Virus record (IMG/VR): IMGVR_UViG_3300050014_000823
Coordinates: 78,773 to 142,772 of that record
DNA length: 64,000 nucleotides
Source: a virus
Reading direction: 5' to 3' (one strand)
The notes beneath the pieces were generated by a model. The model searched no databases, was not told the origin of the DNA, and saw only the letters and a program-made list of their open reading frames with translations. Position 1 is the stretch's first letter; every line of letters begins with the position of its first letter. A program made the translations under genes and the position numbers. Below are positions 27,842 through 44,397 of this stretch, piece after piece.

Positions 27842-28437
27842 TATGTTCGCTTTATTGAGTAGTTAAAAAATCTTTCTATTCTATATACTATATTGGGTGT
27901 TAGTCCACTATATGCATCACACTGAAAAAAGTTATATTGTTGCCAGAGCAACATATCCGAGTCATCGTCAATGATTGCATAACGGCTGAATTCGTGGCTG
28001 TGTACACCAAACCATTTTTGACAATTATCATCCAGCCATTTGTATATTTCAACACCACGTATTCTTTCATTGCAATATCCGGTTTTATCTATTATTGTAA
28101 ATGTACCGCCACAATAATTGAATATTTCCTGTAATTCTTCCGGAGTCCAACCACTTCTCATTGATGCTGAGAGGACTACAGCACTGTTGGTTCTTTCACA
28201 AAGTCCATTAAGCATGTCCATACGCATCGGACACATTTCACCTTTATAGTAATCCCACTTAGAAATTTCCTTTGTCTTAAGCATCTTCCGGAGATATTTC
28301 TTCACTGTCTTATAGAAAGGTATACCACTATATTGTGTCAAGTGTTTATACCTTTCAGTATAAAATAACTGACAATTCAAAACACCATCAACGTCCAAAA
28401 ACACCAAATTTTGAAATTTATTAAGTTCTGGTTCCAT
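27841..28437 (-). CDS. HAD-superfamily phosphatase (PNK 3'-phosphatase-like / HAD_SAK-like)
   Basis: motif I VFLDVDGVLN; 198 aa. Confidence 0.55.
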   Translation of the reverse strand: MEPELNKFQNLVFLDVDGVLNCQLFYTERYKHLTQYSGIPFYKTVKKYLRKMLKTKEISKWDYYKGEMCPMRMDMLNGLCERTNSAVVLSASMRSGWTPEELQEIFNYCGGTFTIIDKTGYCNERIRGVEIYKWLDDNCQKWFGVHSHEFSRYAIIDDDSDMLLWQQYNFFQCDAYSGLTPNIVYRIERFFNYSIKRT

Positions 28438-29230
28438 TTTTATATATATTATATTTACGCATTAAATAATATTTAAAATTATTGTCACCATAAATGTAAT
28501 TTAAAAATTTATCTGCACCTTTATATAGATACATTTTCCACACATTTGGCTTATTCTTAGAGACTTTGGTTCTTGACAATTCATTAATACCCATATCGGT
28601 CAATAAAATACCAATAAAGTCTAACACTTCTTTGGTTGAAATGAGACTTATTCGCAACTTTCCTTGATTTCGAAAACCAACTGACCCGTCACCATCAAAT
28701 AATCCCGCAATAAAATAAGAATAATATTCTTCATCAATCTTAGGAAATTCCAATGCATTGGTTTTATTTGATGTTATGCCCAAATTAATTAAATGTTCTA
28801 CAAACAACTCATTACCAATTTGAATTGAATATCCGGTATATGTTTTATTGGTTCGCTTATCGAAATTAGTTCTTATGCTAATAGCATGTTCTGCACCAAT
28901 AGCTTTCTTAAAATTTTCAATAACAATTAAATCTTTTGATATTAATGAAACTTTATTATTACTTTTCTTAATATTGCCATCCGCACAAATAAATCCAAGC
29001 CAATATGCTTTATCCGGAGAATTGATTTCCTTGAAATAGTCTATACTAAGTGCAAGATGACTCATATTCAATCTACTCTTTTTTTGTTTGGAGATACCGT
29101 TTCTCATTAAAATTAATCGAATTCCTGGTTGAGTTCTTCCGTACTTCAATGCAATTGATTTTTGTGACATTGTTTTGGATAATTCAATAATTTCCATTTC
29201 CAATGCTTTAGTTGCAGGTCTTGTTGTCAT
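28421..29230 (-). CDS. double-motif LAGLIDADG homing endonuclease
   Basis: AYWLGFICADGNI and SYFIAGLFDGDGSV. Confidence 0.8.
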   Translation of the reverse strand: MTTRPATKALEMEIIELSKTMSQKSIALKYGRTQPGIRLILMRNGISKQKKSRLNMSHLALSIDYFKEINSPDKAYWLGFICADGNIKKSNNKVSLISKDLIVIENFKKAIGAEHAISIRTNFDKRTNKTYTGYSIQIGNELFVEHLINLGITSNKTNALEFPKIDEEYYSYFIAGLFDGDGSVGFRNQGKLRISLISTKEVLDFIGILLTDMGINELSRTKVSKNKPNVWKMYLYKGADKFLNYIYGDNNFKYYLMRKYNIYKNGTRT

Positions 29231-30200: not shown

Positions 30201-30878
30201 TTGAAGATACTCAGTATTTATATTAAATTTTCAACCATGTACATATATAAAATAACCAATAATATTAACCAAAAAATTTACATCGGGAAACACGCATCCA
30301 AAAGAAAGTGTTATTGGGGTTCAGGTAAATTAATAAAATTGGCAATTAAAAAACATGGAATAGAAAATTTTACCAAAGAAATTATTGAAACTTGTGACAA
30401 TGAAGAGCAATTATCAATTCGTGAAATTTTTTGGATAGAATATTATGGCTCAAGAAACAGATTAATTGGGTATAATATTACAGAGGGTGGTGACGGTAAT
30501 AAAGCAATATGTAATGGATTTTGGCGTGATAAAAAATTGAGTGATGAACATAGAAAAAACATATCTAAGCATCATGCAGATGTCACCGGAGATAAAAATC
30601 CAATGTTTGGAAAGACACAAGCTAATTCGGTAAAAGAGAATTTAAAGAAGATAAAAACCGGTTTAAATTATTCAAACGAAACTAAATTAAAACATTCAAA
30701 AAGAACAAAAGGTAGTAATAATCCAAATTCCAAGTTAAATGATGTAATTGTATTAAATATAAGAAAAGAATATAGTGATGGAATAAGCACAAATGACCTT
30801 GCAAAAAAATATGGTGTAAATAAACCGTGTATATGGAAAATAGTACACAATTATACTTGGAAACATTTAAAACAATAA
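30201..30878 (+). CDS. GIY-YIG homing endonuclease with NUMOD3 motifs and C-terminal HTH
   Basis: MYIYKITNNINQKIYIGKH...R; SDEHRKNISKHH. Confidence 0.8.
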   Translation: MKILSIYIKFSTMYIYKITNNINQKIYIGKHASKRKCYWGSGKLIKLAIKKHGIENFTKEIIETCDNEEQLSIREIFWIEYYGSRNRLIGYNITEGGDGNKAICNGFWRDKKLSDEHRKNISKHHADVTGDKNPMFGKTQANSVKENLKKIKTGLNYSNETKLKHSKRTKGSNNPNSKLNDVIVLNIRKEYSDGISTNDLAKKYGVNKPCIWKIVHNYTWKHLKQ

Positions 30879-30880
30879 AT

Positions 30881-31450
30881 ATGAATACAACATTTAAAAA
30901 TTTAAGAGAAATTGCACGTAAACAATACAATGATTCTAATTGTAGTTATGGTGATGGTGAATATATGATTCATATTGATATGGTGAGCGATTTTCTTTTT
31001 AATCACATTGCAGTATTTAAAACACTTAATGATGCCGAAAACACATTAAATGCATCGCTTTTTCACGATAGCATGGAAGATGCCAAACAAACCTATAACG
31101 ATATTTGTATGGTTGCAGGTAAAGACGTTGCCGACATTACATTAGGTGTAACCGATGTACCTGCCGAAAACCGTCTGATGAAGCATTTGCTAACAATGGG
31201 TAAAACTGTTCGTGACTATCGTGCAATCATACTGAAAATGGCTGATATGTATTCAAATGCCAAGTACAGTAAGCAAAGTGGCAGTACTATGTATGTAAAG
31301 TATGTTGCAGAGTACCGCTATCGTAAGCCAATATTTGAAATGGCATTAAGTTGGTACAAGAACGACCTTAACCAAGAAGTACTTGCTGTCATTTGGAAAG
31401 AACTTGACGAAATTCACACACCAGATAATTTTGTTCTTAAAACGATATAG
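30881..31450 (+). CDS. HD-domain phosphohydrolase
   Basis: MIHIDM...LFHDSMED...D spacing typical of HD domains; start at Met19 to avoid overlap. Confidence 0.5.
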   Translation: MNTTFKNLREIARKQYNDSNCSYGDGEYMIHIDMVSDFLFNHIAVFKTLNDAENTLNASLFHDSMEDAKQTYNDICMVAGKDVADITLGVTDVPAENRLMKHLLTMGKTVRDYRAIILKMADMYSNAKYSKQSGSTMYVKYVAEYRYRKPIFEMALSWYKNDLNQEVLAVIWKELDEIHTPDNFVLKTI

Positions 31451-31498
31451 GGTATGCCGAAAACCTCATAGAGTAGGCACAATTAATACACATTAAAC

Positions 31499-32518
31499 AT
31501 GTTGTTATTTAAAATTTTAGCTTGGCTCATATTAATTTATGGGATTGTTGCACTCATCCTGCGCACAGTAAAGGTTGTTAATGAAGTCCCGGATGGTGAC
31601 AAAGACAGCTACGGCAGACAGAAAACCAAAAAAGTCAGTGAAAGCATCAAATTGCCATTCGCAATTCCTTCACTTATTTTAGGTTTAATTACTGCTGTTA
31701 CTCTTGCACTTGTTACAATCGTTGGCGCACAGGAAGTTGGCGTTATTACTACCCCGCAGGGAGTCGTAGAACAGCCGTTACACACTGGTTGGCATATGGT
31801 GATGCCTTGGAATAAAGTTCATTTTATGGACAAAACCGTATGGGTATATACTTGTGCACAAGCCATTAAAGAAGGCGCAAAGCCTAATGCAGACGCAATC
31901 TGGGCACCGACTAAGGACGGTATTAAGATGGGTTTTGACGTATCAGTTTCATGGAGAATTGTCGGTAATGAAGCACCGTGGATTTATCAGAACGTAACTG
32001 AGAATGATGGTGGTAATTCAGGTAGATATATTTGGCTCGAAGAAAACGTAATCAGACCCAAATTAAAATCCGCTATGGCATTAACAGTATCTAACTACAC
32101 CCCTATCGAAGCCTACAGTACCAAAAGACAGGACATTCAGAACGATATTCTTAATCGTATGATTGCCGAATGTAAGCAGTACAAGTTGCAGATTGACAAC
32201 GTTGACGTAAGAGAGGTTTACTACAACCCCGAATACGAAACATCAATCAACAACAAGAAACTTGCAGAACAGGAAGCATTACGTCTTGTGGAAGTTACCA
32301 AACAGCGTGAGGAACTTAAGAAACAGGAAGCCATCAACAAGGATATCGCTATCTTGAAGGCAGAAGGTGAAGCTAAGTCATTACAGATTAAAGGTAACTC
32401 AATCTCTAACAACCCGAAGATTATCCAGCTTGAGTGGGTAAACAAATGGGATGGAAAATTACCTATCTACATGATGGGTGATGCGCAGAGTGTCATGATG
32501 AACATGAATAATAAATAG
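31499..32518 (+). CDS. SPFH/band-7 (stomatin/prohibitin-like) membrane protein
   Basis: N-terminal TM, SPFH core, C-terminal coiled coil AEQEALRLVEVTKQREELKKQEA. Confidence 0.7.
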   Translation: MLLFKILAWLILIYGIVALILRTVKVVNEVPDGDKDSYGRQKTKKVSESIKLPFAIPSLILGLITAVTLALVTIVGAQEVGVITTPQGVVEQPLHTGWHMVMPWNKVHFMDKTVWVYTCAQAIKEGAKPNADAIWAPTKDGIKMGFDVSVSWRIVGNEAPWIYQNVTENDGGNSGRYIWLEENVIRPKLKSAMALTVSNYTPIEAYSTKRQDIQNDILNRMIAECKQYKLQIDNVDVREVYYNPEYETSINNKKLAEQEALRLVEVTKQREELKKQEAINKDIAILKAEGEAKSLQIKGNSISNNPKIIQLEWVNKWDGKLPIYMMGDAQSVMMNMNNK

Positions 32519-32831: not shown

Positions 32832-33143
32832 TTAATTTTTTATTTTTTTAAAGTTATTTTTGTTGTAGTTCTTCCACCACGAACAATTCCTACTATTACT
32901 GCAACGCATGCAATAACAAGAAGAGCGTGAATTAACCGTTACAATAGAGTCTTTTGGAAATGTTCCATTACCAATGGTTGTCCCACCAAGAACTGGATTT
33001 GACGATAATGCTACCGTATATTCCACCTTTGGTGTAGGGCATATTCCAACGAGTTCGTTGAAATTGTCTTTTTTACATGTGACAAGCATAATCAGTGCAA
33101 TGAATGACATTGCAATGAATGCCAATAATTTTTTTGTTTTCAT
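32832..33143 (-). CDS. putative lipoprotein
   Basis: MKTKKLLAFIAMSFIALIMLVTC lipobox-like signal; upstream part of longer ORF judged non-coding. Confidence 0.45.
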   Translation of the reverse strand: MKTKKLLAFIAMSFIALIMLVTCKKDNFNELVGICPTPKVEYTVALSSNPVLGGTTIGNGTFPKDSIVTVNSRSSCYCMRCSNSRNCSWWKNYNKNNFKKIKN

Positions 33144-33357
33144 TTTTGTGTGTATTAAACTACAATTATTTGTATATTGTGTTGCAGTTGACAGAGATAG
33201 AGAAATTGAGCAGGGTATGGATACAACATATACTATAAATAGAAAATCGACCAAGATAAAAGTTACATAATTCCGATATAATGTTACATGATTCACACAT
33301 TTGAAAATTGTTTGCATATTTCAAATTTATAATTACCTTTACGCAAAATAATTAAAA

Positions 33358-33921
33358 ATGGAAACCGCAGATACAAAAAGATTAGGTCACGTAATGGTAG
33401 ACCTTGAAACAATGGGAAACAAAAGTAATTCTGTTATTTGCTCACTCGGTGCTGTCGAATTTGACATCAACACAGGTGAACTTGGCAGAGAATTCTACAC
33501 AAGAGTCGATATGCAATCCTGCCTTGACAGAGGCTTAATTGTCAATGCTGATACTATTGAATGGTGGCTCATGCAGAGCGAAAGTGCACGTAAGAAAGTT
33601 ACAGAAGGTATTGGTAAGAATCTTGCACAGGCACTCTATGAATTCAAACTTTATCTCGAACAACTCGGTGCGAACACTGTTCAACTTTGGGGGAATGGTG
33701 TACGTTTTGACATGGGTATTCTCGAAGATGCTTACAGAGCATGCAACTTAAAAGAACCCTGGAATTTCAGATGCGAAAGAGACGTGAGAACACTTGTTTC
33801 TTTTGCTCCAGAAGTAAAAGACCACTTTCCAAAATTCGGTACTGAGCACAATCCAATTGACGACTGCAAGTATCAAATCGGCTATTGCACAGCGATTTGG
33901 CAAAACTTAAAAGGAATTTAA
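33358..33921 (+). CDS. DEDDh 3'-5' exonuclease (DnaQ-like; T4 DexA-like)
   Basis: Exo I VMVDLETMG, Exo III HNPIDDCKYQ. Confidence 0.7.
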   Translation: METADTKRLGHVMVDLETMGNKSNSVICSLGAVEFDINTGELGREFYTRVDMQSCLDRGLIVNADTIEWWLMQSESARKKVTEGIGKNLAQALYEFKLYLEQLGANTVQLWGNGVRFDMGILEDAYRACNLKEPWNFRCERDVRTLVSFAPEVKDHFPKFGTEHNPIDDCKYQIGYCTAIWQNLKGI

Positions 33922-33926
33922 TAATT

Positions 33927-33952
33927 AAGCAGGAAAATTTTCCTGCTTTTTT
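33927..33952 (+). terminator. rho-independent terminator
   Basis: AAGCAGGAAAATTTTCCTGCTTTTTT. Confidence 0.65.
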
Positions 33953-33982
33953 GTAACATTTTCATTTCCTTTACGTATAATC
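33951..33982 (+). promoter_or_regulatory. conserved phage promoter motif copy
   Basis: TTGTAACATTTTCATTTCCTTTACGTATAATC; ATG only 6 nt after the -10, so near-leaderless. Confidence 0.6.
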
Positions 33983-33986
33983 ACGC

Positions 33987-34781
33987 ATGGCAAAGAGAAA
34001 ACCTATAGACCCCGAAGTACGCAAAAAAGAAATGCTTGAAACAGAGTGTAGAGAAATGCGTGAAATGATTGTTGTTGGTATCTTACCACTCAACCCTACG
34101 AGATTTTTCGCTGTTGGCGAAAGAGTACAGTGGGGAGCATTGGAAGAAACCTACATCAGACAAATCTTTGAAGGTGGCGTATATTATCTCATTGAAAGTA
34201 TAAATGTTAAACGTTACAGAGACCAACCCGGTGAAAATGAAATTCGTTACATGGGATGGATTGACCTTTACAAATACAATCAACGTCAACCCACAAATTT
34301 TGCCAAACCCGAAGAACATCGTATAAATTATCTCAACTCAGGAATATCTTCATTACTTAATATGGTGTATCATTCGGGAGTTGATTTTAATGTTGACTAT
34401 CAACGTGACCATGTATGGACTCTCGATGACAAGATTGCTTTAATTGACAGTATATTTGGCAATGTTGATATTGGCAAGTTTACGTTTGTTCAGCGTGATT
34501 TCCGTGTTGAGGGTAAAATTTATGAGATTCTTGACGGTAAGCAAAGACTCTCAACCATTGCAGAATTTGTCGAAGGCAGATTTTTATATCATGGTTATAC
34601 GTTTGCAGAATTAAGTGGTTATGATAAGCACAGGTTCGAAGCACACCCAATTTCTTGGGGATATTTGGAAAGACCAACTAAACGTGCTATATTTGAAACC
34701 TTTATTAAACTCAACACCTGCGGAAGACCGATGAAGAACGAAGATATTGACAAAGTAAAAAAATTATTGGATGAACTCTAA
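33987..34781 (+). CDS. DUF262 (ParB/Srx-fold, GmrSD N-terminal-like) protein without DUF1524 nuclease domain
   Basis: DYQRDHVW...LIDSIFGN..IG...LDGKQRLSTI matches DUF262 (QR..VW and DGQQR) motifs. Confidence 0.55.
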   Translation: MAKRKPIDPEVRKKEMLETECREMREMIVVGILPLNPTRFFAVGERVQWGALEETYIRQIFEGGVYYLIESINVKRYRDQPGENEIRYMGWIDLYKYNQRQPTNFAKPEEHRINYLNSGISSLLNMVYHSGVDFNVDYQRDHVWTLDDKIALIDSIFGNVDIGKFTFVQRDFRVEGKIYEILDGKQRLSTIAEFVEGRFLYHGYTFAELSGYDKHRFEAHPISWGYLERPTKRAIFETFIKLNTCGRPMKNEDIDKVKKLLDEL

Positions 34782-35253
34782 ACCCACATTCTTCCTTGAT
34801 ATGGATGGCGTTATGGTTACAGAAAGACAACTTTTTGACCAAATGCATCCCGAATTTCATTTGAGTTATTTCGACCCAGAATGTGTTCAGATATTAAATG
34901 AGATATTGTCAAACTTTACCGACTTCGACTTGATTTTATCCAGCGATTATCGGTATAATTACGAATTTGACATCATTAATAAAGCCTTTAAAGAATACGG
35001 AGTCAATGGCTTACTTTCCGATATTACCCCCAATCTATGGGGAGTAAGATATAAAAGCTATCAACAACTTGAAGAATGCCGTGCAGAAGAAATTCTTGCT
35101 TATGTCAAAGAGCATGAACTTACAAATTGGGTCGCAATTGATGACCTAAACCTTTCCCCTTGGATTCCCGATAACTTTGCCAGATGTACCGATTATACTC
35201 TGGGCATCAAGCAGAGTGGAGTTAAAGATAAAATTCTCAAAATCTTAATTTAA
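34771..35253 (+). CDS. HAD-superfamily phosphatase (second copy)
   Basis: motif I FFLDMDGVMV. Confidence 0.55.
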   Translation: MNSKPTFFLDMDGVMVTERQLFDQMHPEFHLSYFDPECVQILNEILSNFTDFDLILSSDYRYNYEFDIINKAFKEYGVNGLLSDITPNLWGVRYKSYQQLEECRAEEILAYVKEHELTNWVAIDDLNLSPWIPDNFARCTDYTLGIKQSGVKDKILKILI

Positions 35254-35257
35254 AACA

Positions 35258-35824
35258 ATGAAAAACGAAAAATTGGAACTTTTGTTGAACAAGATGGTCA
35301 CTTATGAAAAAAGTGAAAAACTTGTGTCTTTGGTGTTTTCTTATAAGGGTTTCCTTTATAAGAACGGCACAGATTCTTACTACATTAAGGTAGTTGAAAC
35401 CGAAGTCGGACCTACACAGCCTGGTCAGATAATCTATTTGAGCAAGGGTGATGAAGACCTCATTACTTTCGCTGCAAAGCCTAAACTTATGCGAGTAAGT
35501 TTAAAATCATGGCACTACAGACTCATGCAGTTCGTTCTCCGTGATAATACTCCAACACCACGAACCATGCAGAATGGTTGTCCGTATTTCTGGCTGTTGG
35601 TACTCTCAATGCTTGCATTACCTTTCGTACTGATTGGCAAAGGAATAAAAGGAATTTTCCTTGGTGTTATTGGCATTATCAGATGGTGTCTTAAATCGTT
35701 GGTTAACGGTTGGCTCCAGAGTATTGACGATGTTATGGCATACGAACTTTACTGGAGAGGTAATTACAGTAGCAATTATGGTGTAGCAATGCCGAAAACC
35801 GCTAAGTTATACTTCAAGGGTTAA
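35258..35824 (+). CDS. membrane protein (C-terminal TMs)
   Basis: 188 aa. Confidence 0.45.
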   Translation: MKNEKLELLLNKMVTYEKSEKLVSLVFSYKGFLYKNGTDSYYIKVVETEVGPTQPGQIIYLSKGDEDLITFAAKPKLMRVSLKSWHYRLMQFVLRDNTPTPRTMQNGCPYFWLLVLSMLALPFVLIGKGIKGIFLGVIGIIRWCLKSLVNGWLQSIDDVMAYELYWRGNYSSNYGVAMPKTAKLYFKG

Positions 35825-35916
35825 TCAACTGCTACGATAATATTTCACAAAATTATACAAAAATTAATAATAATTAACAAAATTTTTCGTACTTTTACAA
35901 AAAATATACTATTTAT

Positions 35917-36132
35917 ATGAAAAAGATTATTAAAATTATGGAAAATTTGAAAAACCAATCGTTGAAAGTTGTCCGTGTTGATAAACACGAATTCGAACTT
36001 GATAATGGTGATGTGTATCCAATACCTTTCGAATTGGATGTTGATGAAGATATCAGCGTTGAAGAATTTCAGAAGATTCTGGACTCTTCAAAAGAACTGA
36101 TGCTAAAGATACTTGAACAGTCAAATGAATAA
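35917..36132 (+). CDS. small acidic protein
   Basis: 71 aa. Confidence 0.35.
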   Translation: MKKIIKIMENLKNQSLKVVRVDKHEFELDNGDVYPIPFELDVDEDISVEEFQKILDSSKELMLKILEQSNE

Positions 36133-36715
36133 GTTATTATCCATACAACAAGTATCTATGACTCTTGGTGTCACCAAGAAAACATTACGGATATGGGATA
36201 ACGAAGGTAAACTCATATCAGTTAAAACCGTTGGTGGACACCGTAAATACCGTGAAGAAGACATTAATAACTACATGGGTGAACATAGTGTTGAACCAGT
36301 GATAACAGGTGTTGCCACATATAGTCGTGTCAGTTCACATGAACAGAAAACTAAAGGAGATTTGGACAGACAGTCTCAGAGGATTTCTGAGTACTGTGCA
36401 AAGAAGAAATACAGCGTGGAACACATTATTAAGGATGTTGGGTCTGGACTTTCGGACACCCGTGTTGGTTTTGTTAAACTCGTGGATTTGGTTATTAAGA
36501 AAAAAATCAGTAAAATTGTAATCGAAAACAAAGACAGGTTAACCAGATTCCAATTCAATCTGATAAAGACATTCTTTAACAGTTATGATGTTGAACTGGA
36601 ATGTGTGGATAACAACAATATATCCAATGAGGAAGAGTTTGTGAACGACATAATGATGCTCATGGCTTCCTTCTCAGGAAAACTCTACGGGAAAATAATA
36701 GTAACTAAAATATAG
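36113..36715 (+). CDS. tnpA: IS607-family TnpA (MerR-HTH + serine recombinase)
   Basis: N-terminal HTH LSIQQVSMTLGVTKKTLRIWD; catalytic ATYSRVSSHEQ. Confidence 0.75.
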   Translation: MNSQMNKLLSIQQVSMTLGVTKKTLRIWDNEGKLISVKTVGGHRKYREEDINNYMGEHSVEPVITGVATYSRVSSHEQKTKGDLDRQSQRISEYCAKKKYSVEHIIKDVGSGLSDTRVGFVKLVDLVIKKKISKIVIENKDRLTRFQFNLIKTFFNSYDVELECVDNNNISNEEEFVNDIMMLMASFSGKLYGKIIVTKI

Positions 36716-36761
36716 AACAATATTATACAAATATAAACTTTGGTATAGTTTTTGTAGTGTT

Positions 36762-37367
36762 ATGTATATGATTGGAATAAAAGAAGCAGCAGAATTACTT
36801 GGAATTACTCCCAAAACATTAAGATTATGGGAGAAAAACGGTAAAATAACGAGTCATAGGACTGAAGGTCAACATAGAAGATATGTAGTTTCAGAACTTA
36901 TCGGTAGTCGTGGAGACAAACTATTAACAATTGCTTATGCCAGAGTATCAAGTTATGACCAGAAAGATGATTTAAAACGACAAGAATTGGTATTGGAAAG
37001 TTATTGTGCGAGTAAAGGATTTGAATTTGAATTAATTTCTGATTTAGGTTCTGGAATGAACTACAAGAAAAAAGGACTTATCAGATTAATAAAACTGATT
37101 TGCAGTAATCAAATTGATAGATTGGTAATCACACATAAAGACAGATTATTGAGATTTGGAAGTGAGTTAATTTTTATGCTTTGCGAAATCTTTGCTGTTG
37201 AAGTTTGTATAATTAATAGGAGTGAAGATAGCACCTTTGAAGAAGATTTAGCCAACGATGTTTTGGAAATTATAACTGTCTTCAGTGCAAGATTATATGG
37301 AAGTCGAAGCCATAAAAATAAACAGATAATACAACAATTAAAACAGGTAGCCAAAGATTTGAAATGA
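36762..37367 (+). CDS. tnpA: IS607-family TnpA (second, divergent copy)
   Basis: IKEAAELLGITPKTLRLWE; AYARVSSYDQ; overlaps the downstream tnpB by 4 nt. Confidence 0.8.
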   Translation: MYMIGIKEAAELLGITPKTLRLWEKNGKITSHRTEGQHRRYVVSELIGSRGDKLLTIAYARVSSYDQKDDLKRQELVLESYCASKGFEFELISDLGSGMNYKKKGLIRLIKLICSNQIDRLVITHKDRLLRFGSELIFMLCEIFAVEVCIINRSEDSTFEEDLANDVLEIITVFSARLYGSRSHKNKQIIQQLKQVAKDLK

Positions 37368-38539
37368 AGTCAATTAAGGTAAGATTAGAACTAAACAATA
37401 AGCAGACTACACTTGCCAATAAACACGCAGGAGTGGCAAGATATGCTTATAATTGGGGAAAATCTGTCTGTGATTTGGCAATACAAAATAAGGAGCACAG
37501 ACCAACAGCAATTGATTTACATAAGAAATTTGTTAAAGAAGAAAAAACTATTAAGTCTTGGTTGTATGAAGTATCCAAGTGCAGCCCACAACAAGGTTTA
37601 AGAAATTTGGATGAAGCATACAAAAGAACATTCAAAGTTAAAAGTAGTCATTTTCCTAAGTTCAAAAAGAAAGGACAACACGATAGTTTTTATCTGGAAG
37701 GTGCTATCAAAACTAATAGTAATAAAATTAAAGTACCTAAGTTTGGTTGGTTAAGATGTTCAGAAACATTACCAGAATGTGAAGTCAAAAATGTTGTTAT
37801 AAGTAAAACTGCTAATCAATGGTTTATTGCTTTTAAAATACCATTTGAACCACAGATTACTAATAAGGTGAATGGTGTTGTCGGTGTTGATTTAGGTATT
37901 AAAACACTTGCAGTATTGTCAGATGGTAAAGTATTTGAAGCAGTTAAACCATATAAACGAAACAAACGGAAATTAAAAATACTACAAAGAAGATTAAGTA
38001 AGAAACAGAAAGGTAGCCAAAATAGAAAAAAAGCCTGTGTGAAGATAGCAAAACTACATTACAGGATAGCAAACATTAGAAAAGATACCACACATAAATT
38101 AACAACATATTTAAGTAAAAACCACACTGAATGTGTTATTGAAGACCTTTGTGTTCGTGGAATGAGTAAAAATCACAAATTAGCATCAGCCATATTGGAT
38201 GGTGGATTTTCAGAGTTCAGAAGACAATTAGAATATAAGTGTCAATGGTATGGTTCAACACTAACAATAGTTGATAGATTTTATCCAAGTTCAAAGACTT
38301 GTAGTGGATGTGGTAATGTTAAAAAAGAACTAAAATTATCTGAAAGAGAATATGTTTGTGAGAATTGCGGATTGGTGATAGATAGAGACCTAAATGCTGC
38401 AATTAATTTAAGAAATAAGTCGGTGAGTTACACCGAATCAGCCTGTGGAGTGCCTAAACAACTTGATACTTTTGTATCTGGTGGCGCAATGAATCAGGAA
38501 GTAAATTGCAATGTTCAACATTGTGTAAGTTTTACGTAA
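37364..38539 (+). CDS. tnpB: TnpB (IS605/IS607 OrfB; RuvC-like RNA-guided nuclease family)
   Basis: RuvC-I GVDLGIKTLAV, RuvC-II VIEDL, zinc finger CSGCG...CENCG, RuvC-III RDLNAAINL. Confidence 0.85.
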   Translation: MKSIKVRLELNNKQTTLANKHAGVARYAYNWGKSVCDLAIQNKEHRPTAIDLHKKFVKEEKTIKSWLYEVSKCSPQQGLRNLDEAYKRTFKVKSSHFPKFKKKGQHDSFYLEGAIKTNSNKIKVPKFGWLRCSETLPECEVKNVVISKTANQWFIAFKIPFEPQITNKVNGVVGVDLGIKTLAVLSDGKVFEAVKPYKRNKRKLKILQRRLSKKQKGSQNRKKACVKIAKLHYRIANIRKDTTHKLTTYLSKNHTECVIEDLCVRGMSKNHKLASAILDGGFSEFRRQLEYKCQWYGSTLTIVDRFYPSSKTCSGCGNVKKELKLSEREYVCENCGLVIDRDLNAAINLRNKSVSYTESACGVPKQLDTFVSGGAMNQEVNCNVQHCVSFT

Positions 38540-38615
38540 CGGTTAAAGGAGTTGATTTAACCGAACCTCAAATTTTTGAATTATTCGAAAAAGAATTATT
38601 ATAAATTAGTTAATT

Positions 38616-38978
38616 ATGGAAAGACAAATTAAATTTAGAGCATGGGACGAAGGTAATAAAATCATGCACAACAACTTTCAATTCATTCGTTCAGGAGAAG
38701 AAGGTAATGATTGGATAGTATTCACATCCGATAAACAAACTCTTAAAGATAAACAGCATCCATTAGAAAATCCTTATTTTCAACAACAATTGAAAATAAT
38801 GGAATGGTCTGGAATCGAAAACATCTTCGAAGGAGATATTGTCACATTAGGCGAAATTGATGGAGAGGGTGTAGTTAAATACAATGAAGACAGATTTTAT
38901 GTTGATTATGGAACTACGCATACAAGAGTGAGTAAAAATCATAAAGTATTAGGAAATATTTACGAAAAAACTGAATAA
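38616..38978 (+). CDS. hypothetical protein
   Basis: 120 aa. Confidence 0.4.
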   Translation: MERQIKFRAWDEGNKIMHNNFQFIRSGEEGNDWIVFTSDKQTLKDKQHPLENPYFQQQLKIMEWSGIENIFEGDIVTLGEIDGEGVVKYNEDRFYVDYGTTHTRVSKNHKVLGNIYEKTE

Positions 38979-38979
38979 A

Positions 38980-39201
38980 ATGAGTGGAGAAGTAGAATTC
39001 GGAAGATGTGATATTTGTAAAGAGGATAAACCTCTTGAAAGGACATACTATCATTATGACATTAAATGTGAATGTCATTCACCCCGTCATTTTGAATTGG
39101 TCAGGCATTGTAAAGATTGTGTTCCAGTAGAACCTCTTGAAACAACCTTAACTATTAAAATAGAGACATTAAGAATATTATTACACTTGCCGAAACATTA
39201 A
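38980..39201 (+). CDS. small Cys-rich protein
   Basis: CDICK...CECH...CKDC. Confidence 0.35.
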   Translation: MSGEVEFGRCDICKEDKPLERTYYHYDIKCECHSPRHFELVRHCKDCVPVEPLETTLTIKIETLRILLHLPKH

Positions 39202-39205
39202 TAAT

Positions 39206-39412
39206 ATGAAATCACAATATAAAATAATTAAAAAATTTAAACCCACAAAAATAAACGGGATTGATTTTTATTCTGATGTACAGGTGTGGAAAATGATTGA
39301 TATGGCATACGAACAAATTCGAAACAAAGAAGAAATATCAGAACCAATGGAATCAGGCGCAGAGTTTTATTGCCCTGATTGTGGTAAAAGTGTTTACAGT
39401 TGTGGATGTTAA
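39206..39412 (+). CDS. small protein with C-terminal CxxC...CGC
   Basis: 68 aa. Confidence 0.35.
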   Translation: MKSQYKIIKKFKPTKINGIDFYSDVQVWKMIDMAYEQIRNKEEISEPMESGAEFYCPDCGKSVYSCGC

Positions 39413-39421
39413 TTTATAAAT

Positions 39422-40555
39422 ATGAAACTAATCCGTTCAACCAAATGTAGTCTGAAATTCGCAACAGCGAAGAAGCAGAATGAACTATCGGTCATCTTGA
39501 GTGAATACTCGAAGGTTGTTAATATCTTCATTGACTATTTCTGGTTGAATGCTGATAAAGCAACTAAAGGTGAACTTCTTAAACCAGTTGTTGATATTCC
39601 CGAAACATGGTTATCAGCACGACTGAGAAAAGTAGCAGCCAGAGAAGCAATCGACATGATTAATGCCAGTAAGCAAAGGTGGAAAGAAAAAGCAGTGAAG
39701 CCAGTTCATAAAGGTAACAGAATGTATGTTAGTTGCACCATTGCTGATTTGGTATCCACAAAGAACAACGGATATAAAACCGAAGACAGTTTGAGGTTTG
39801 ATGCTTGGTTACACATAGCAAGTGTTGGTAACAAAATGATAATGGACTTACCGATTAAATATCACAAACATTTCAACAAATATAATAACATCGGTAAGAG
39901 ATTGAATTCATATATCATCACCAAGAATTATGTCCAGTTCAGTTTTGAGATAATCACCGAGACAAAAAAGGAAGGTAAACATTGCATCGGTATCGACACT
40001 GGAATAAACGCACTGGCAAGTCTTAACAACGGCAATCAGTATGGTCTGGACATCAAAGGTTGTATCGAGAGAGTTAAAAGATGTAAGCAGAAGTCCAAAG
40101 GTTATTATGTTGCTAAAAGAGCGTTGAAACAAAGAATTGATGAAACAGCGAAAGAGATATTAGTAAAAGAAAATCCAGATTTAATTGTTGTTGAACAACT
40201 AAAAAAGATGGGATATAAAAGTAAAGCCAAACGCTTGTTGGCTAAAAATATCAGGCGTTCTATCGGAACTTGGAATTGGAAGTATTGGCTCAAAAGGTTA
40301 GAAGCACAATGCGAGATTAACCGTGTTAGTTTTCGCAGTGTAGCACCTTATTACACCAGTACAACCTGTCCAGTATGTGGTCATTCTGATAGGGGAAATC
40401 GACTCGGTGAAGTGTTCTTGTGTCTATCATGTGGTCACAAAGACAATGCAGATATAAATGCGGGTAAGAACATTTTGAATCGGTTTCTCACGGGACAATA
40501 CGGTGCTCGTTACAAGGAAATAAAGGATGTGCAAGTTTGTGCAGATTTATTTTAA
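39422..40555 (+). CDS. tnpB: TnpB-like protein, second copy with no adjacent tnpA
   Basis: GIDTGINALASL, VVEQL, CPVCGH...CLSCGH, NADINAGKNI. Confidence 0.8.
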   Translation: MKLIRSTKCSLKFATAKKQNELSVILSEYSKVVNIFIDYFWLNADKATKGELLKPVVDIPETWLSARLRKVAAREAIDMINASKQRWKEKAVKPVHKGNRMYVSCTIADLVSTKNNGYKTEDSLRFDAWLHIASVGNKMIMDLPIKYHKHFNKYNNIGKRLNSYIITKNYVQFSFEIITETKKEGKHCIGIDTGINALASLNNGNQYGLDIKGCIERVKRCKQKSKGYYVAKRALKQRIDETAKEILVKENPDLIVVEQLKKMGYKSKAKRLLAKNIRRSIGTWNWKYWLKRLEAQCEINRVSFRSVAPYYTSTTCPVCGHSDRGNRLGEVFLCLSCGHKDNADINAGKNILNRFLTGQYGARYKEIKDVQVCADLF

Positions 40556-40669
40556 CGGTAATGCAGAAGCATTGCTACAAATGCAGAAAATGGGATTAAA
40601 AATCGATTTTAATTAAAAAATTATAAAATTTTATAATTGTTTACAGTATTTATTGTAAACAATCGTAAA

Positions 40670-40891
40670 ATGGCAAAATATATTAAAGAAACAGCAAGAA
40701 TTGACGTTAAGTTCATTGACGCAGCGACAGAAGAAACTATCCTTGAAGTACCAGACAGAAACTGGATGAATGTGGGTGAGATATTGAGTGCTCGTCACGG
40801 AGATATGATACTTCAAGCAAAACTTAAAGGTAAACGATTACCAAAAAAAGTATTGATTTTGGTACTATCTGAATTGGTTCTGGAAGAATAA
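40670..40891 (+). CDS. hypothetical protein
   Basis: start after 9-bp inverted repeat TTGTTTACA...TGTAAACAA (40638-40664). Confidence 0.4.
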   Translation: MAKYIKETARIDVKFIDAATEETILEVPDRNWMNVGEILSARHGDMILQAKLKGKRLPKKVLILVLSELVLEE

Positions 40892-40910
40892 CGTGTTTTT
40901 TAAGTGTTTT

Positions 40911-40945
40911 AAATGCGCATAGAAGTGATTTTATGCGCATTTTTT
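40911..40945 (+). terminator. rho-independent terminator (two ATGCGCAT palindromes + T5)
   Basis: AAATGCGCATagaagtgattttATGCGCATTTTTT. Confidence 0.6.
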
Positions 40946-40975
40946 GTAACATTTTTCATCGGTTTACGTATAATC
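40944..40975 (+). promoter_or_regulatory. conserved phage promoter motif copy
   Basis: TTGTAACATTTTTCATCGGTTTACGTATAATC. Confidence 0.6.
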
Positions 40976-40999
40976 AGTCATAACTTTAAAATTAATACG

Positions 41000-41983
41000 A
41001 TGAAAAAGATTTTAACAATTATGATTTTTTCGATGCTTTCAGTACTTGCATCAGCACAAATAAAATTGTGGTTCAATAAGATAAGCGAGACTGAAATCAA
41101 TCCCGACTACAATGGTGGTATTAACACTATGGAAGGTTATGTAAGACCATTCATTGATACTTGTGGTATTACCGAATACAATAAAGTTATCGGATTACTT
41201 GGTTCTGGCGAAATCGATAAATATATGCAATATCTTAATGATTTGGGTGAAAGACGATTTGTCAGAGAAGCCAATGAAATTAAAAGTATGTTATGGAACA
41301 TAAATAAAAGCAAACTGTACTTTATCAGCAACGATAAACTGTATGTTGTTACATATGACGTTACCGACCACAAGAGTTTATACTTGTTTCGCAGGGATGA
41401 CGATGGTTGGAAGCCAGCTTCGGATTTAATCGCTGTAGATGATTATCAGTTTAAAGAATATATGAAAAGGTTCGAATCTCGTACAACTCGTTGGAATGCT
41501 ACAGATACTCTATATACTCTTGAAAACCAATTCTATGGTGAAGTCCGTAAGATTTCCAATGGTTCGGTATTCGTTACGTTCAGTACTGAGATATGGTATC
41601 CGAAAGAAAGCAATACATATAACAGCATCGCAATATTTGTTCCCGATACAATCACCAAGGAAACTTATCACGTGTCGTTATTTGAACCTGAAAATAAGGC
41701 AGGTAAGGCAGTGAAAAACGTTACTTCATACTATTGTACTTGGTCGAAAGACTTCAAACCAATATGGCACAAAACAATTGGTACTGTTAAATATCCGATA
41801 TTGTATGGAACACGTAATACTGATTATATGGAGTTTACCGATGGTAATACATTTAAGATTACATATTGGGATGGTAGTAGGGAAAATCCACGTATGACAG
41901 GAACAATAAATTTCAAAATTGTGGATTACAGTGCTTTTATTGATGCGGTAGGTACTACAATTGTTTTAAACAAACTGAAATGA
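41000..41983 (+). CDS. secreted protein (signal peptide)
   Basis: MKKILTIMIFSMLSVLASAQ; start at internal Met downstream of promoter. Confidence 0.5.
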   Translation: MKKILTIMIFSMLSVLASAQIKLWFNKISETEINPDYNGGINTMEGYVRPFIDTCGITEYNKVIGLLGSGEIDKYMQYLNDLGERRFVREANEIKSMLWNINKSKLYFISNDKLYVVTYDVTDHKSLYLFRRDDDGWKPASDLIAVDDYQFKEYMKRFESRTTRWNATDTLYTLENQFYGEVRKISNGSVFVTFSTEIWYPKESNTYNSIAIFVPDTITKETYHVSLFEPENKAGKAVKNVTSYYCTWSKDFKPIWHKTIGTVKYPILYGTRNTDYMEFTDGNTFKITYWDGSRENPRMTGTINFKIVDYSAFIDAVGTTIVLNKLK

Positions 41984-42420
41984 TGAAAGCCGTACCGTTC
42001 ATATACACTATGGGTACTGAGAAGTTTCATCAGTTTCTCTCTGTAGAGTTTAAAGTAGATATGTTGTACCCTGTGTTTGGTGAGAAGTCTTGTGATAGAC
42101 TCTTCGATGGTTGGCGTGGAAAGGATATGGGTAGCTACTATAAATTCACAAACGAACAGGAGATTGTTCTGGAGTTTTACCCCAATCACTATGACATTTG
42201 TAAGAAAGACGGTAGAACTGTTATTAAACATAAACTGACGTTTTTACCAAAAAACATCAACGATTTTATAAATGACATGCATCGATATGGGGTAGAACTT
42301 CAATGGAGCCAGTGGGTGGATGAACACTTTGAACCCAAGGATTTCCTGCATAAAGACGACATAAAACCGTACTATGTTGACCTCTTGCATAAACTTGATA
42401 AAGACTTTGAATTACAATAA
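41980..42420 (+). CDS. hypothetical protein
   Basis: 146 aa. Confidence 0.45.
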   Translation: MMKAVPFIYTMGTEKFHQFLSVEFKVDMLYPVFGEKSCDRLFDGWRGKDMGSYYKFTNEQEIVLEFYPNHYDICKKDGRTVIKHKLTFLPKNINDFINDMHRYGVELQWSQWVDEHFEPKDFLHKDDIKPYYVDLLHKLDKDFELQ

Positions 42421-42462
42421 CACTTGATTTTTAAATAAATTATACTTAGATTTGCATCTACT

Positions 42463-43236
42463 ATGGACAGAAAAAGTTGGGAAATATGGGATGTCTTGAA
42501 TAACATTACATTTAAGACACAGGGATACAGGAAGAACTTTGACCTCATTACTGAGAACGAAAACATCATCAGTGAATACGTTGGGAATATTCTCATGGCA
42601 AGATTAAGTGAAAATAAACCCGCATTGATTATTGGCGAATACACATTTTCAGTTTGGGACATATCCATGTCGAAGATACTGAAAATTGACTTGAATAAGC
42701 TACTTGATGCACACCACATGGTCAATGCATACGTAGAGTTGATTAAGATGATAAGAGCAAAGGAAATCAACATTAACGAGTATGATAAGATTGTTCTTAT
42801 ACACAGTTTAGTTGTTCATCCGGAGTTCAGGAAAATGGGAATAACCGAAGAGTTCATTGAAATGATTTACCGGGATTATCACTTCGATAAAACGGCAATC
42901 ATCGCAATAGTTCAACCATTCCAAAACAACGTTAACGATTTAGACTATTACATGATGCAGAAGACAGTATTGGTCCGCAACGATTATGGTGCACCAAATA
43001 GGTCTAACGTATTGCAAGCTGCAGAGTATTATTCTCTACAGAAGTTCATCGACAAAACCGATACTGAAATGAACGAATACAAGCTATTTGCAGTGGCAAA
43101 TAGATGTGGATTCAACAGGATTAATAGTTCACATTTGTTTTTACTCACCCCGGACACAATACTTGAGAGAATTAAGAAGAAAAAGGAAATAAATAAACAT
43201 ATAGACGAATCATGGGAAAAGGAAGAAATAAAATAA
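42463..43236 (+). CDS. putative GNAT-family acetyltransferase
   Basis: LVVHPEFRKMGITEEFIE resembles GNAT motif A; low. Confidence 0.35.
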   Translation: MDRKSWEIWDVLNNITFKTQGYRKNFDLITENENIISEYVGNILMARLSENKPALIIGEYTFSVWDISMSKILKIDLNKLLDAHHMVNAYVELIKMIRAKEININEYDKIVLIHSLVVHPEFRKMGITEEFIEMIYRDYHFDKTAIIAIVQPFQNNVNDLDYYMMQKTVLVRNDYGAPNRSNVLQAAEYYSLQKFIDKTDTEMNEYKLFAVANRCGFNRINSSHLFLLTPDTILERIKKKKEINKHIDESWEKEEIK

Positions 43237-43460
43237 AAGATTTGGATAGATTTCACTATCACGAAGCACTCGATAGAGCATATATCATTGGTAATATGAT
43301 AAATGAGCATCTAACAGAGCATCCTGTCATCATGAAACACAAGAAATTACGAAAATTAATTAAGGTGGCTGAACAAAATGTAATGGATGTTTATCAGATG
43401 ATTGGTGGTTTGGATATGAAATTATTTCCAAACGACTCGGAACAACGTGGTAAGCAATAA
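43212..43460 (+). CDS. hypothetical protein
   Basis: 82 aa. Confidence 0.35.
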   Translation: MGKGRNKIKDLDRFHYHEALDRAYIIGNMINEHLTEHPVIMKHKKLRKLIKVAEQNVMDVYQMIGGLDMKLFPNDSEQRGKQ

Positions 43461-43503
43461 GTTGTAGTTTACTTGGTGGCGAAGTATTTATATGAGATAA
43501 ATA

Positions 43504-43689
43504 ATGGACAGTAATTTAAAAATATCAACGGTTTCTCGACAAAAAATCCCTTCAAGAAAGGTAGATATTGTTCAAAATTTGGCTTTGCAAGACTTCGCAA
43601 CACCCAGGAAAACTCACATTTCTGGGCATTTTCATTTAATAACCCCAATAAATATTGAAAATCAGGCTCCTAAGTCACTGATTTTCTGA
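43504..43689 (+). CDS. hypothetical small protein
   Basis: 61 aa. Confidence 0.25.
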   Translation: MDSNLKISTVSRQKIPSRKVDIVQNLALQDFATPRKTHISGHFHLITPINIENQAPKSLIF

Positions 43690-43716
43690 TTAATAACTTT
43701 ACTAAATTTTACGACT

Positions 43717-44397
43717 ATGAAGAAATTATTGTTATTTTTGTTTTTAATGTTTTCGTCCTTTGGATTTACAAGTCTTCCTGTTACCAATGCAGAAAATGGC
43801 GACAAGGACGAAATGAGCGAATATTTAACGAAACAAATTGAGGATTTAAAAACTCAAATGTATTTACAAAGTTTAATACAATACATTGAACTTGAATCAG
43901 AGGTAATAATTCCAAAATATCTTGACACTAAGTATGTGGAATTTATTTATAACACTGCAAATCAGAATGGTGTGCCAGTTAGGACTGCATTCAGATTAGT
44001 TTTTAAGGAATCGTCTTTTAGAGATACCGTTACTTCACCAATGGGTGCAGGTGGTCTTATGCAACTAATGCCGGACACTCGCAAATTATATAGAGAGATT
44101 CTTCGTACAGATACTCTTAAATTTGATAAAAATCAAGAGGATATTTATATAGGTATATATATGGTAAAAGACTTATATAATTATTGGGTTGGCAGAGGTA
44201 ATTCTGTTGGCTATTCTTGGAAGTTGTCATTAGCTTCATATAATGCAGGTAAGGGCACTGTAATCTACTATAAAGGAATTCCACCAATAGGTGAGACCAC
44301 TGATTTCATTGCATTTATACTCAAGGCACATTCGAATCCAAGTTTCTATGCAAGCTATTTGAAAAAATACGGTAACGACATAAAAAATCACGCATGA
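43717..44397 (+). CDS. secreted soluble lytic transglycosylase (SLT domain)
   Basis: signal peptide; ESSFRD...GAGGLMQLMP...SLASYNAG. Confidence 0.7.
   Translation: MKKLLLFLFLMFSSFGFTSLPVTNAENGDKDEMSEYLTKQIEDLKTQMYLQSLIQYIELESEVIIPKYLDTKYVEFIYNTANQNGVPVRTAFRLVFKESSFRDTVTSPMGAGGLMQLMPDTRKLYREILRTDTLKFDKNQEDIYIGIYMVKDLYNYWVGRGNSVGYSWKLSLASYNAGKGTVIYYKGIPPIGETTDFIAFILKAHSNPSFYASYLKKYGNDIKNHA

Follow-up and report, generated by a model that had tools for sequence, protein, structure and literature searches.

The 64,000-nt stretch of viral DNA analysed here (IMG/VR record IMGVR_UViG_3300050014_000823, positions 78,773 to 142,772; hereafter the window) very probably carries two nested transposons of the IS607 family in the genome of a jumbo phage, each encoding a serine transposase (TnpA) and a TnpB protein with a predicted guide RNA, through which the elements may home. 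The outer element is composed of a left end, a small gene (orf71), tnpA-1, a variable cargo slot, tnpB-2 and a right end terminating in AACGG, and would be moved by TnpA-1 through serine recombination at GG dinucleotides. TnpB-2 would bind an omega RNA with a 183-nt scaffold overlapping the end of its own open reading frame (ORF) and a guide read from the adjacent phage DNA, each of the two TnpBs using the adjoining ~16-20 nt as guide. The TnpB-omega RNA complex would cleave genomes in which the site is free of the element, be it vacated by excision or carried by a co-infecting relative, and recombinational repair would copy the element back in, which constitutes homing. The inner element, an IS607 insertion sequence (IS) made of tnpA-2 and tnpB-1 with a RAGATH-18-type guide RNA, would have landed in the 3' end of tnpA-1, and the predicted TnpB-1 guide would match uninterrupted outer elements exactly. 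The TnpB and IS607 biology behind this proposal of guided cleavage and homing has been described (PMC11061315; PMC13565253), and homing between co-infecting phages is plausible.

Extent and mobility of the outer element

An exact look-up of the TnpB-2 protein retrieved a 34-kb contig, L001, which aligns with the window by blastn in two blocks only (35818-36693 at 99.5% identity and 38541-40559 at 99.95%), the rest being unrelated. L001 encodes, in this order, orf71, TnpA-1 (214 aa), a 60-aa ORF, a YopX-domain protein, orf73, orf68 and TnpB-2, without tnpA-2 and tnpB-1. This two-block match in unrelated flanks indicates that 35820-40558 is a discrete unit present in two different genomic backgrounds and that 36691-38542 is a later insertion. 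A comparison with an IS-free relative had been advised in an initial annotation of the window, and L001, which lacks the inner IS, indeed displays the nesting.

The ends of the outer element were defined on a comparison set of 45 IMG/VR loci, in most of which the order orf71, tnpA-1, gap, tnpB-2 is found, the gap measuring between 40 bp and 2.9 kb. In these loci (i) conservation always begins at GG/GTTAAYYAACTGYTA (GG/GTTAAT, the slash marking the junction), as seen in 19 distinct insertions, and (ii) conservation halts at AACGG/ in every locus, usually with T as the next base, before 36 distinct right flanks. In the window, the core GG lies at 35818-35819 (left junction) and at 40557-40558 (right terminus), and ACAAAA(A)T is repeated directly four times in the left end (35847, 35857, 35877 and 35897), with a weak right-end counterpart (TTACAAGGAAAT) at the sequence level. 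The tnpB-2 stop codon is located 0-30 nt before the right end, varying by copy; the right end is therefore a nucleic-acid feature and not a coding one.

Furthermore, in three loci that share the same large cargo (L003, L007 and L038), pairwise blastn homology is limited to the span from left end to right end, cargo included. On a 97.9-kb phage contig, a complete copy (L012) is accompanied by a deletion derivative (L042, 4968-6369) that retains only orf71, tnpA and the final 370 nt of tnpB, which correspond to the RNA scaffold and the right end. The loci L004 and L006 have the element and the right flank in common with L005 at 99.97% identity and differ from it in the left flank; deletion or rearrangement next to the element seems common.

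IS607 elements are characterized by GG termini, insertion at (G)GG, a lack of inverted repeats and direct sub-terminal repeats (PMC6188088). As in IS607 of H. pylori and IS1535, both TnpAs of the window combine a MerR helix-turn-helix (HTH) domain with a serine recombinase, and tnpB lies downstream on the same strand. The outer element also begins and ends with GG, inserts at GG and lacks terminal inverted repeats, and the direct repeats of its left end may correspond to the sub-terminal ones; the termini and insertion sites were verified in the window, in L001 and in ~19-36 independent insertions, the insertion sites of the family being many and different, and the element is mobile as a unit. 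It departs from the compact arrangement of tnpA and tnpB only, in that it possesses a third conserved gene, orf71, which even the compact 2.1-kb copies (L025) carry, and a cargo slot of 0 to 2.9 kb that can include large helicases, so that copies extend from 2.1 kb to more than 4.7 kb. A further difference is that close relatives of the outer family were seen on phage-like contigs only.

The initial annotation had placed IS607-family tnpA/tnpB units within a phage, and this is confirmed. Its ORFs at 36113-36715, 36762-37367, 37364-38539 and 39422-40555 are present, and two of them encode MerR-HTH serine-recombinase TnpAs as stated (Pfam MerR-HTH and Resolvase; NCBIfam equivalog 175 and 199 bits). 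The arrangement that it had proposed, with a single IS607 element, an extra TnpA and an orphan TnpB, is replaced by one element nested in another, both equipped with a TnpA and a TnpB; TnpB-2 is not an orphan, as it is co-mobile with TnpA-1 in L001 and in other loci.

Insertion site in the phage genome

The outer element interrupts a gene of the host phage, to which its left end contributes the stop codon TAA (35822-35824). Homologues of this gene, found in 31 IMG/VR loci, are 449-491 aa long; aligned to the window by tblastn, they match by residues 1 to ~180 only, ending at 35809-35830, and their C-terminal part was not found in the window. Upstream synteny and the downstream gene orf146 are retained around the insertion. 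When compared for a target-site duplication, the flanks of the element (CTTCAA-GG and T-AATGCA) have nothing in common beyond GG.

Genes of the outer element

The gene orf71, located 5' of tnpA-1 in most loci, is conserved throughout the family; none of its 135 homologues contains a Pfam domain, and no family was matched in Pfam or PHROG. Its AlphaFold2 (AF2) model, with a predicted local distance difference test score (pLDDT) of 88, shows an alpha-beta3-alpha fold without a match at E<=0.001 among the folds of the Protein Data Bank (PDB). A regulator or an accessory factor would be our guess. TnpA-1 is identified as an IS607 transposase (Pfam MerR and Resolvase; NCBIfam transpos_IS607 equivalog, 175 bits for a cutoff of 110); it and TnpA-2, both of 200 aa, are 35% identical.

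The compact 2.1-kb copies have nothing in the slot between tnpA and tnpB, which otherwise contains one to five ORFs. In the window, tnpB-2 is preceded by three small ORFs that had been described as Cys-rich, which holds for the last two, whereas the first encodes a 120-aa YopX-domain protein; the YopX gene and the two zinc-ribbon ORFs are also encoded in L001 and in part in L008. In other loci the cargo includes ResIII/DEAD helicases of 720-878 aa (L003:3198-5504; L007:3362-5998; L012:3143-5305; L038).

The inner element

Relatives of the inner element were found on four viral contigs (L078-L081) at 80-93% identity, with different flanks and a common right end (...TAACGG/); L078-L080 also define the left end, and L081 aligns to the tnpB part and the right end only. 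The left flanks are TAAGG, AATGG, TACGG or CATGG, without a match to the published transposon-associated motifs (TAMs) AGGAG and GAGGG. The translational coupling of tnpA-2 and tnpB-1 that had been noted earlier is borne out by an ATGA overlap.

TnpB-1 possesses the full set of domains previously attributed to it, namely HTH_OrfB, OrfB_IS605 and TNB, and scores 291 bits with the NCBIfam model guided_TnpB (cutoff 100). It matches the ISDra2 TnpB with a score of 192 bits, its D176/E260/D342 aligning with the catalytic residues D191/E278/D361, and the ISFba1 TnpB (PDB 8IAZ) at E 2e-50. By these sequence matches, tnpB-1 is a canonical tnpB, and its product is a predicted RNA-guided nuclease.

At the inner insertion point, 191 bp that are present in L001 are missing from the window, either through an adjacent deletion made by the IS or through a deletion after insertion. 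The insertion clipped the C-terminus of TnpA-1 and removed the N-terminus of the 60-aa cargo ORF. Indeed, the identity of the window TnpA-1 with its 214-aa L001 orthologue stops at 36693, and the native basic C-terminal 20 residues are lost, 7 residues derived from the inner IS standing instead. As TnpA-1 is clipped, the cargo ORF truncated and 191 bp lost, the outer copy in the window may be crippled.

TnpB-2, a divergent Cas12f-like TnpB

The only Pfam domain of TnpB-2 is the TNB zinc finger. The protein aligns to TnpB-1 across all three RuvC motifs, and the RuvC residues of both proteins are intact, as the initial annotation had claimed; in TnpB-2, D192/E258/D344 and the cysteines C316/C319/C334/C337 of the CxxC..CxxC finger are essentially invariant among 218 family members. 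The AF2 model (pLDDT 93) displays a full-length TnpB/Cas12f fold. Over the whole length, Foldseek retrieved AsCas12f as the top match (E 3.6e-15, template-modelling (TM) score 0.61), the ISFba1 TnpB, a mimivirus Fanzor2 and CnCas12f1, with a probability of 1.00 and TM scores of 0.5-0.6 for AsCas12f, ISFba1 TnpB and Fanzor2. A profile of the TnpB-2 family likewise ranks Cas12f (up to 102 bits) above the ISFba1 TnpB (67 bits) and the ISDra2 TnpB (52 bits).

The TnpB-2 subfamily comprises 151 clusters at 50% identity (E<=1e-30). Only distant matches, of <=32% identity, were obtained by tblastn against cultured phages. A search of one genome per species in 185,579 species gave five matches, of which four are close and all on contigs of metagenome-assembled genomes (MAGs), one of them duplicating an IMG/VR viral contig; the fifth, in the genome of an Ectobacillus isolate, is distant (31% identity). 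Within the reach of these searches, close relatives of the outer family are apparently restricted to phages. The MAG contigs that match TnpB-2 or orf71 (L098, L099, L101 and L100, the last an 8.6-kb contig of a Candidatus Vampirococcus lugosii MAG) are short and are probably mis-binned phage DNA.

Two further identities were considered for the TnpB proteins. TldR, a nuclease-dead TnpB-like repressor, was ruled out, the RuvC triads of both TnpB-1 and TnpB-2 being intact. Membership in a type V CRISPR-Cas system (Cas12f/CasPhi) was rejected for lack of an adjacent array: no CRISPR array was found in the 64-kb window, and the transposon end directly follows tnpB-2.

Predicted guide RNAs

Conserved structured RNA had been expected in the flanks 3' of the two tnpB genes. 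Such structure was recovered at both 3' ends, at tnpB-1 as a sub-threshold RAGATH-18 match; the predicted scaffolds fall within the ORFs, in their final ~100-180 nt, and stop at the ...AACGG terminus of each element, so that the flanks are outside them. The flank 38540-38615 cannot be a scaffold, since from 38543 onward it is outer-element DNA that is found in L001 without the inner IS; the flank 40556-40640 is, from 40559 onward, host-phage DNA that differs in every locus. The small motifs reported in these flanks exist, namely a hairpin (CGGTTAAA..TTTAACCG, 38540-38563), a direct repeat (AATGCAGAA, at 40560 and 40582) and an inverted repeat (TTGTTTACA/TGTAAACAA, at 40639/40655). Neither this hairpin nor the repeats (40560-40663) were accepted as scaffolds, since they are flank DNA and represent guide or target at most.

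The structure predicted for TnpB-2 was analysed on an alignment of the last 220 nt up to AACGG in 32 loci. RNAalifold predicted 45 base pairs, with compensatory changes in 19 of them. Furthermore, (i) 96% of the alignment cells are paired, compared with 39-47% when the partners are slid by 1-3 columns; (ii) 94 cells show double changes, compared with 4-25 in the slid controls; and (iii) none of 500 shuffles attained any of the observed measures. Pairing can be kept while the amino acid changes, as in ACGGG...CTCGT to ACAGG...TCTGT (Arg to Cys). Further downstream, the majority of the 32 sequences fold unaided into a terminal stem-loop, which usually ends ~5 nt before the terminus and whose stem varies considerably in sequence, and the minimum free energy fold of the window sequence recovers both the multi-helix domain and the terminal stem-loop, with a single-sequence z-score of -2.0. 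Where the residue is identical, the codon is identical as well in a fraction of ~0.5 across most of tnpB-2 and of 0.69-0.74 in the final 75 codons. Covariation, folding and synonymous-site conservation place the predicted scaffold at 40376-40558, with the guide starting at 40559, and this RNA is a well-supported candidate for a new omega-RNA class. The search with Rfam covariance models, also proposed at the outset, gave a RAGATH-18 match below threshold at tnpB-1 and no family for the TnpB-2 RNA, for which the best match (STnc280, E 0.12, 27 vs 80 bits) was taken as chance.

The RAGATH-18 match of tnpB-1 has counterparts at the homologous site of both L080 and L081, and RAGATH-18-derived right-end RNAs (reRNAs) have been shown experimentally to guide IS607 TnpBs of ~390 aa (PMC11061315). 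The sequence that would follow the TnpB-1 scaffold, TTAAAGGAGTTGATTTAACC, is found unchanged in L001, after the ...CATGGG of its uninterrupted outer element, and would thus be a guide with a target there. For TnpB-2, the putative guide is the host-phage sequence adjoining the right end, as suggested by analogy and by the point at which conservation stops. In the two bases before GG, C occurs in 0 of 19 independent left flanks, whereas the right end is invariably AAC/GG; this is a weak hint that a G/A-rich TAM could spare the occupied site.

Alternative explanations

Several observations weigh against two nested, RNA-guided elements as the explanation. The host gene has been cut short and the rest of it is absent, which implies a deletion or rearrangement during or after the outer insertion. 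No empty site of the outer element was recovered: an exact 20-mer scan of IMG/VR found none, look-ups with the downstream genes gave no record, and a look-up with the upstream gene returned only the same phage, on a 92-kb contig (L103, JGI 3300050015). The inner insertion is not a clean GG insertion either, given the 191-bp loss and a left-end tip unlike that of its relatives. The RAGATH-18 match (RF03064, 32.3 bits, E 0.0026) is under the gathering score of 44.9, and the covariation of the TnpB-2 RNA lies within a coding region, with an imperfect alignment of the terminal hairpin. TnpB-2 itself is just under the guided_TnpB cutoff, at 96.7 vs 100 bits, so that annotation pipelines may leave it unnamed, and its TAM is putative.

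Read from the window alone, the region could be a single IS607 element (tnpA-2/tnpB-1) next to a leftover tnpA, with an orphan tnpB that arrived separately: tnpA-1 adjoins tnpA-2, and tnpB-2 is 2.7 kb off, behind three unrelated ORFs. This explanation is highly improbable, since tnpA-1 and tnpB-2 travel together with common ends in L001 and in more than 20 other loci and are separated by only 40-60 bp in the compact copies. TnpB-2 could instead be a domesticated phage nuclease with an anti-competitor, defence or regulatory role, no longer part of a transposon and programmed by its 3' RNA to a fixed target. Close relatives have indeed been found on phage-like contigs only (the 45 IMG/VR loci and the MAG contigs among the 5 matches in 185,579 species genomes), TnpB-2 is under strong purifying selection, and phage nucleases can drive interference competition (PMC11620839). 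Domestication is nonetheless judged improbable: the sequence after the scaffold is the insertion flank and differs at each locus, IS607-type ends delimit the unit in which tnpB-2 and tnpA are linked, the RuvC triad is intact and not TldR-like, and the window contains no CRISPR array. The phage may all the same gain from the cutting of competitors that lack the element.

The structure at the 3' end of tnpB-2 might also be a cis element of another kind, involved in TnpA binding, mRNA stability or translational control. The right end must hold TnpA-binding sites, which coincide with these ~100 nt, the single-sequence fold has only a modest z-score, and no known omega-RNA family was matched in Rfam. 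Long-range helices with 19 compensatory pairs point, however, to RNA pairing and not to protein-DNA sites, the position and the ~180-nt size fit experimentally defined TnpB omega RNAs and reRNAs (PMC11061315; PMC13565253), and the deletion derivative L042 keeps exactly the final 370 nt; such a cis element without a guide function has little probability.

A more far-reaching extension of the nested-transposon reading is that the outer element represents a phage-restricted IS607-like lineage acting as RNA-guided gene drives among co-infecting jumbo phages. TnpB-2 and its omega RNA would cut the element-free alleles of competitors, repair would install the element together with its exchangeable cargo (helicases, YopX, small zinc-finger proteins and orf71), and the element would be both a homing device and a weapon of interference competition. 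We regard this extension as possible but doubtful. Because TnpB-2 resembles Cas12f-type effectors more than classical TnpB, the same lineage could also represent a path, carried by phages, along which miniature type V effectors arose from the TnpB of transposons. The homing or anti-competitor role that the initial annotation had envisaged would be in keeping with the data and with published ideas (PMC13565253).

Relation to known systems

The inner element is a routine one: IS607 elements have already been annotated in phages, among others those of Microcystis and Nodularia, Staphylococcus Twort-like phages and Thermus phages, and RAGATH-18-guided IS607 TnpBs are known. Like ISFba1 (8IAZ; PMC11061315), it combines a TnpB of similar type (391 aa), a RAGATH-18-like core before the right end and a GG end. 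It differs in that the ISFba1 reRNA starts 13 nt past tnpB whereas the sub-threshold core of TnpB-1 lies inside the ORF, and in the 3' spacer to the element end, which is ~64 nt in ISFba1 and ~42 nt here; the TAMs published for this type (AGGAG, GAGGG) are not evident at the L001 target (ATGGG). TnpB-2 is distant from the ISFba1 protein (28 bits with 8IAZ), and its RNA is different.

With ISDra2 TnpB of the IS200/IS605 family, the window proteins share the RuvC D-E-D residues, the TNB zinc finger and the overall fold, and the predicted scaffolds similarly overlap the 3' end of tnpB and end at the right end, with a guide from the flank. The transposases differ, being serine recombinases and not Y1 HUH enzymes, as does the target, GG instead of a TTGAT-type sequence, and with ISDra2 TnpB the TnpB-2 profile reaches no more than 52 bits. 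The best sequence and fold matches of TnpB-2 are found among Cas12f proteins (AsCas12f, OsCas12f and CnCas12f1; 102 bits, Foldseek E 3.6e-15), and the C-terminal RuvC/zinc-finger region of CasPhi-2 (Cas12j), from huge phages, also matches it (E 7e-11). Unlike these effectors, TnpB-2 is encoded within a transposon together with tnpA, has no CRISPR array, cas genes or evidence of a tracrRNA, and has a predicted guide region that is the insertion flank; with 377 aa, it is far smaller than CasPhi. Array-less Cas12f/TnpB-like genes have previously been noted in huge phages (PMC11748809). A parallel can further be drawn with the free-standing and intron-borne homing endonucleases of T4-like and jumbo phages, which are selfish phage nuclease genes able to spread to co-infecting relatives, and the window also encodes GIY-YIG and LAGLIDADG-like genes; the outer element differs by its own transposase and discrete ends, and its recognition would be RNA-guided.

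New in the outer family are the third conserved gene, the exchangeable cargo, a Cas12f-like TnpB with a scaffold absent from Rfam and an apparently phage-only range. The region is a clean example of nested transposons with predicted RNA-guided nucleases in a jumbo phage, and not a new principle. If TnpB-guided homing works between co-infecting phages, it would explain the spread of the element and its cargo in lytic genomes and would provide a natural setting in which to examine 'non-restorative transposon homing'. The compact TnpB-2 (377 aa), with its predicted scaffold of ~183 nt, is moreover a candidate for use in editing. With regard to annotation, Cas12f/TnpB-like genes of huge phages that lack an array may reside on transposons, and such repeats cause contigs to break.

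Phage context and other features

The window is phage DNA, encoding an ATP-dependent ligase, a Dda-like helicase, an RNA ligase, a tail-fibre protein and an SbcC-like protein according to gene annotation. Contigs related to it are 300-420 kb long, by which measure it belongs to a jumbo phage. A megablast of window positions 33000-44000 against INPHARED gave zero matches. The contig L103, which belongs to the same phage, terminates right after tnpB-1; its assembly broke at the repeated IS.

Coordinates of the features discussed in the text (positions in the window)
Feature	Position	Strand	Description
Outer IS607-family transposon	35820-40558	+	4739 bp with the nested IS counted; from the L001 comparison and the ends in 45 loci
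Left end of outer element, GTTAATCAACTGCTA...	35820-35916	+	Conserved start in 19 distinct insertions
orf71	35917-36132	+	Small acidic protein at the head of the element; overlaps the start of tnpA-1
tnpA-1	36125-36715	+	IS607 serine transposase of the outer element; ORF spans 36113-36715
Cargo ORF remnant	38543-38604	+	C-terminal piece of a 60-aa ORF, intact in L001 (gene 9001-9183)
YopX-domain protein (cargo)	38616-38978	+	120 aa; Pfam YopX 1.9e-9
Zinc-ribbon-like cargo ORFs (two)	38980-39201, 39206-39412	+	CxxC-rich
tnpB-2	39422-40555	+	Divergent TnpB/Cas12f-like, 377 aa; predicted RNA-guided nuclease of the outer element
Predicted TnpB-2 omega-RNA scaffold	40376-40558	+	183 nt; multi-helix domain 40376-40514, terminal stem-loop ~40517-40553, AACGG end
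Predicted TnpB-2 guide, TAATGCAGAAGCATTGCTAC	40559-40578	+	Host-phage flank; conservation stops right after AACGG(T)
Inner IS607 element	36691-38542	+	1852 bp, in the 3' end of tnpA-1; absent from L001
tnpA-2	36762-37367	+	Serine transposase; Pfam MerR and Resolvase; NCBIfam IS607 equivalog 199 bits (cutoff 110)
tnpB-1	37364-38539	+	391 aa; Pfam HTH_OrfB, OrfB_IS605, TNB
RAGATH-18-like core	38442-38500	+	Within the tnpB-1 ORF; Rfam RF03064; predicted scaffold to 38542
Predicted TnpB-1 guide/target, TTAAAGGAGTTGATTTAACC	38543-38562	+	Outer-element DNA; part of the hairpin noted earlier
Truncated host-phage gene	35258-35824	+	First ~180 of ~450-490 codons left
LAGLIDADG_3/NUMOD3/GmrSD_N group	28421-29230, ~30237-30878, 33987-34781	-, +, +	As annotated on L103, an identical contig

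Other selfish or defence-type genes are encoded near the nested elements, namely an ORF with a weak LAGLIDADG_3 match, an ORF with a faint NUMOD3 match and a GmrSD_N/DUF262 protein. A divergent PurZ-like/adenylosuccinate-synthase ORF (phrog_1211, 1e-47) adjoins a GIY-YIG gene of the 'group I intron endonuclease' family (TIGR01453, 119.6 bits), the two lying at 23229-24359 (-) and 24364-25107 (-). The former ORF scores far under the cutoffs of the NCBIfam purA and PurZ models, and may hint at a modified-purine (2-aminoadenine) DNA metabolism.

A scan for promoters and terminators gave a match count not above that of shuffled sequence. A 42-nt direct repeat with 81% identity between its copies (TTTTTTGTAACATTTT...TTTACGTATAATCA) is found at 33947-33988 and 40940-40981, both copies right before gene starts, and is probably a phage promoter motif. 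The 9-bp inverted repeat mentioned above (40639-40663), which is external to the transposon, lies 9 nt before the ATG (40672) of the following host gene and may be a regulatory hairpin of that phage gene. Finally, an Rfam DUF805b RNA motif (31447-31479, +; 39.6 bits vs a gathering score of 35.6) is located immediately 5' of a Band_7/'lipoprotein' ORF (31499-32518).

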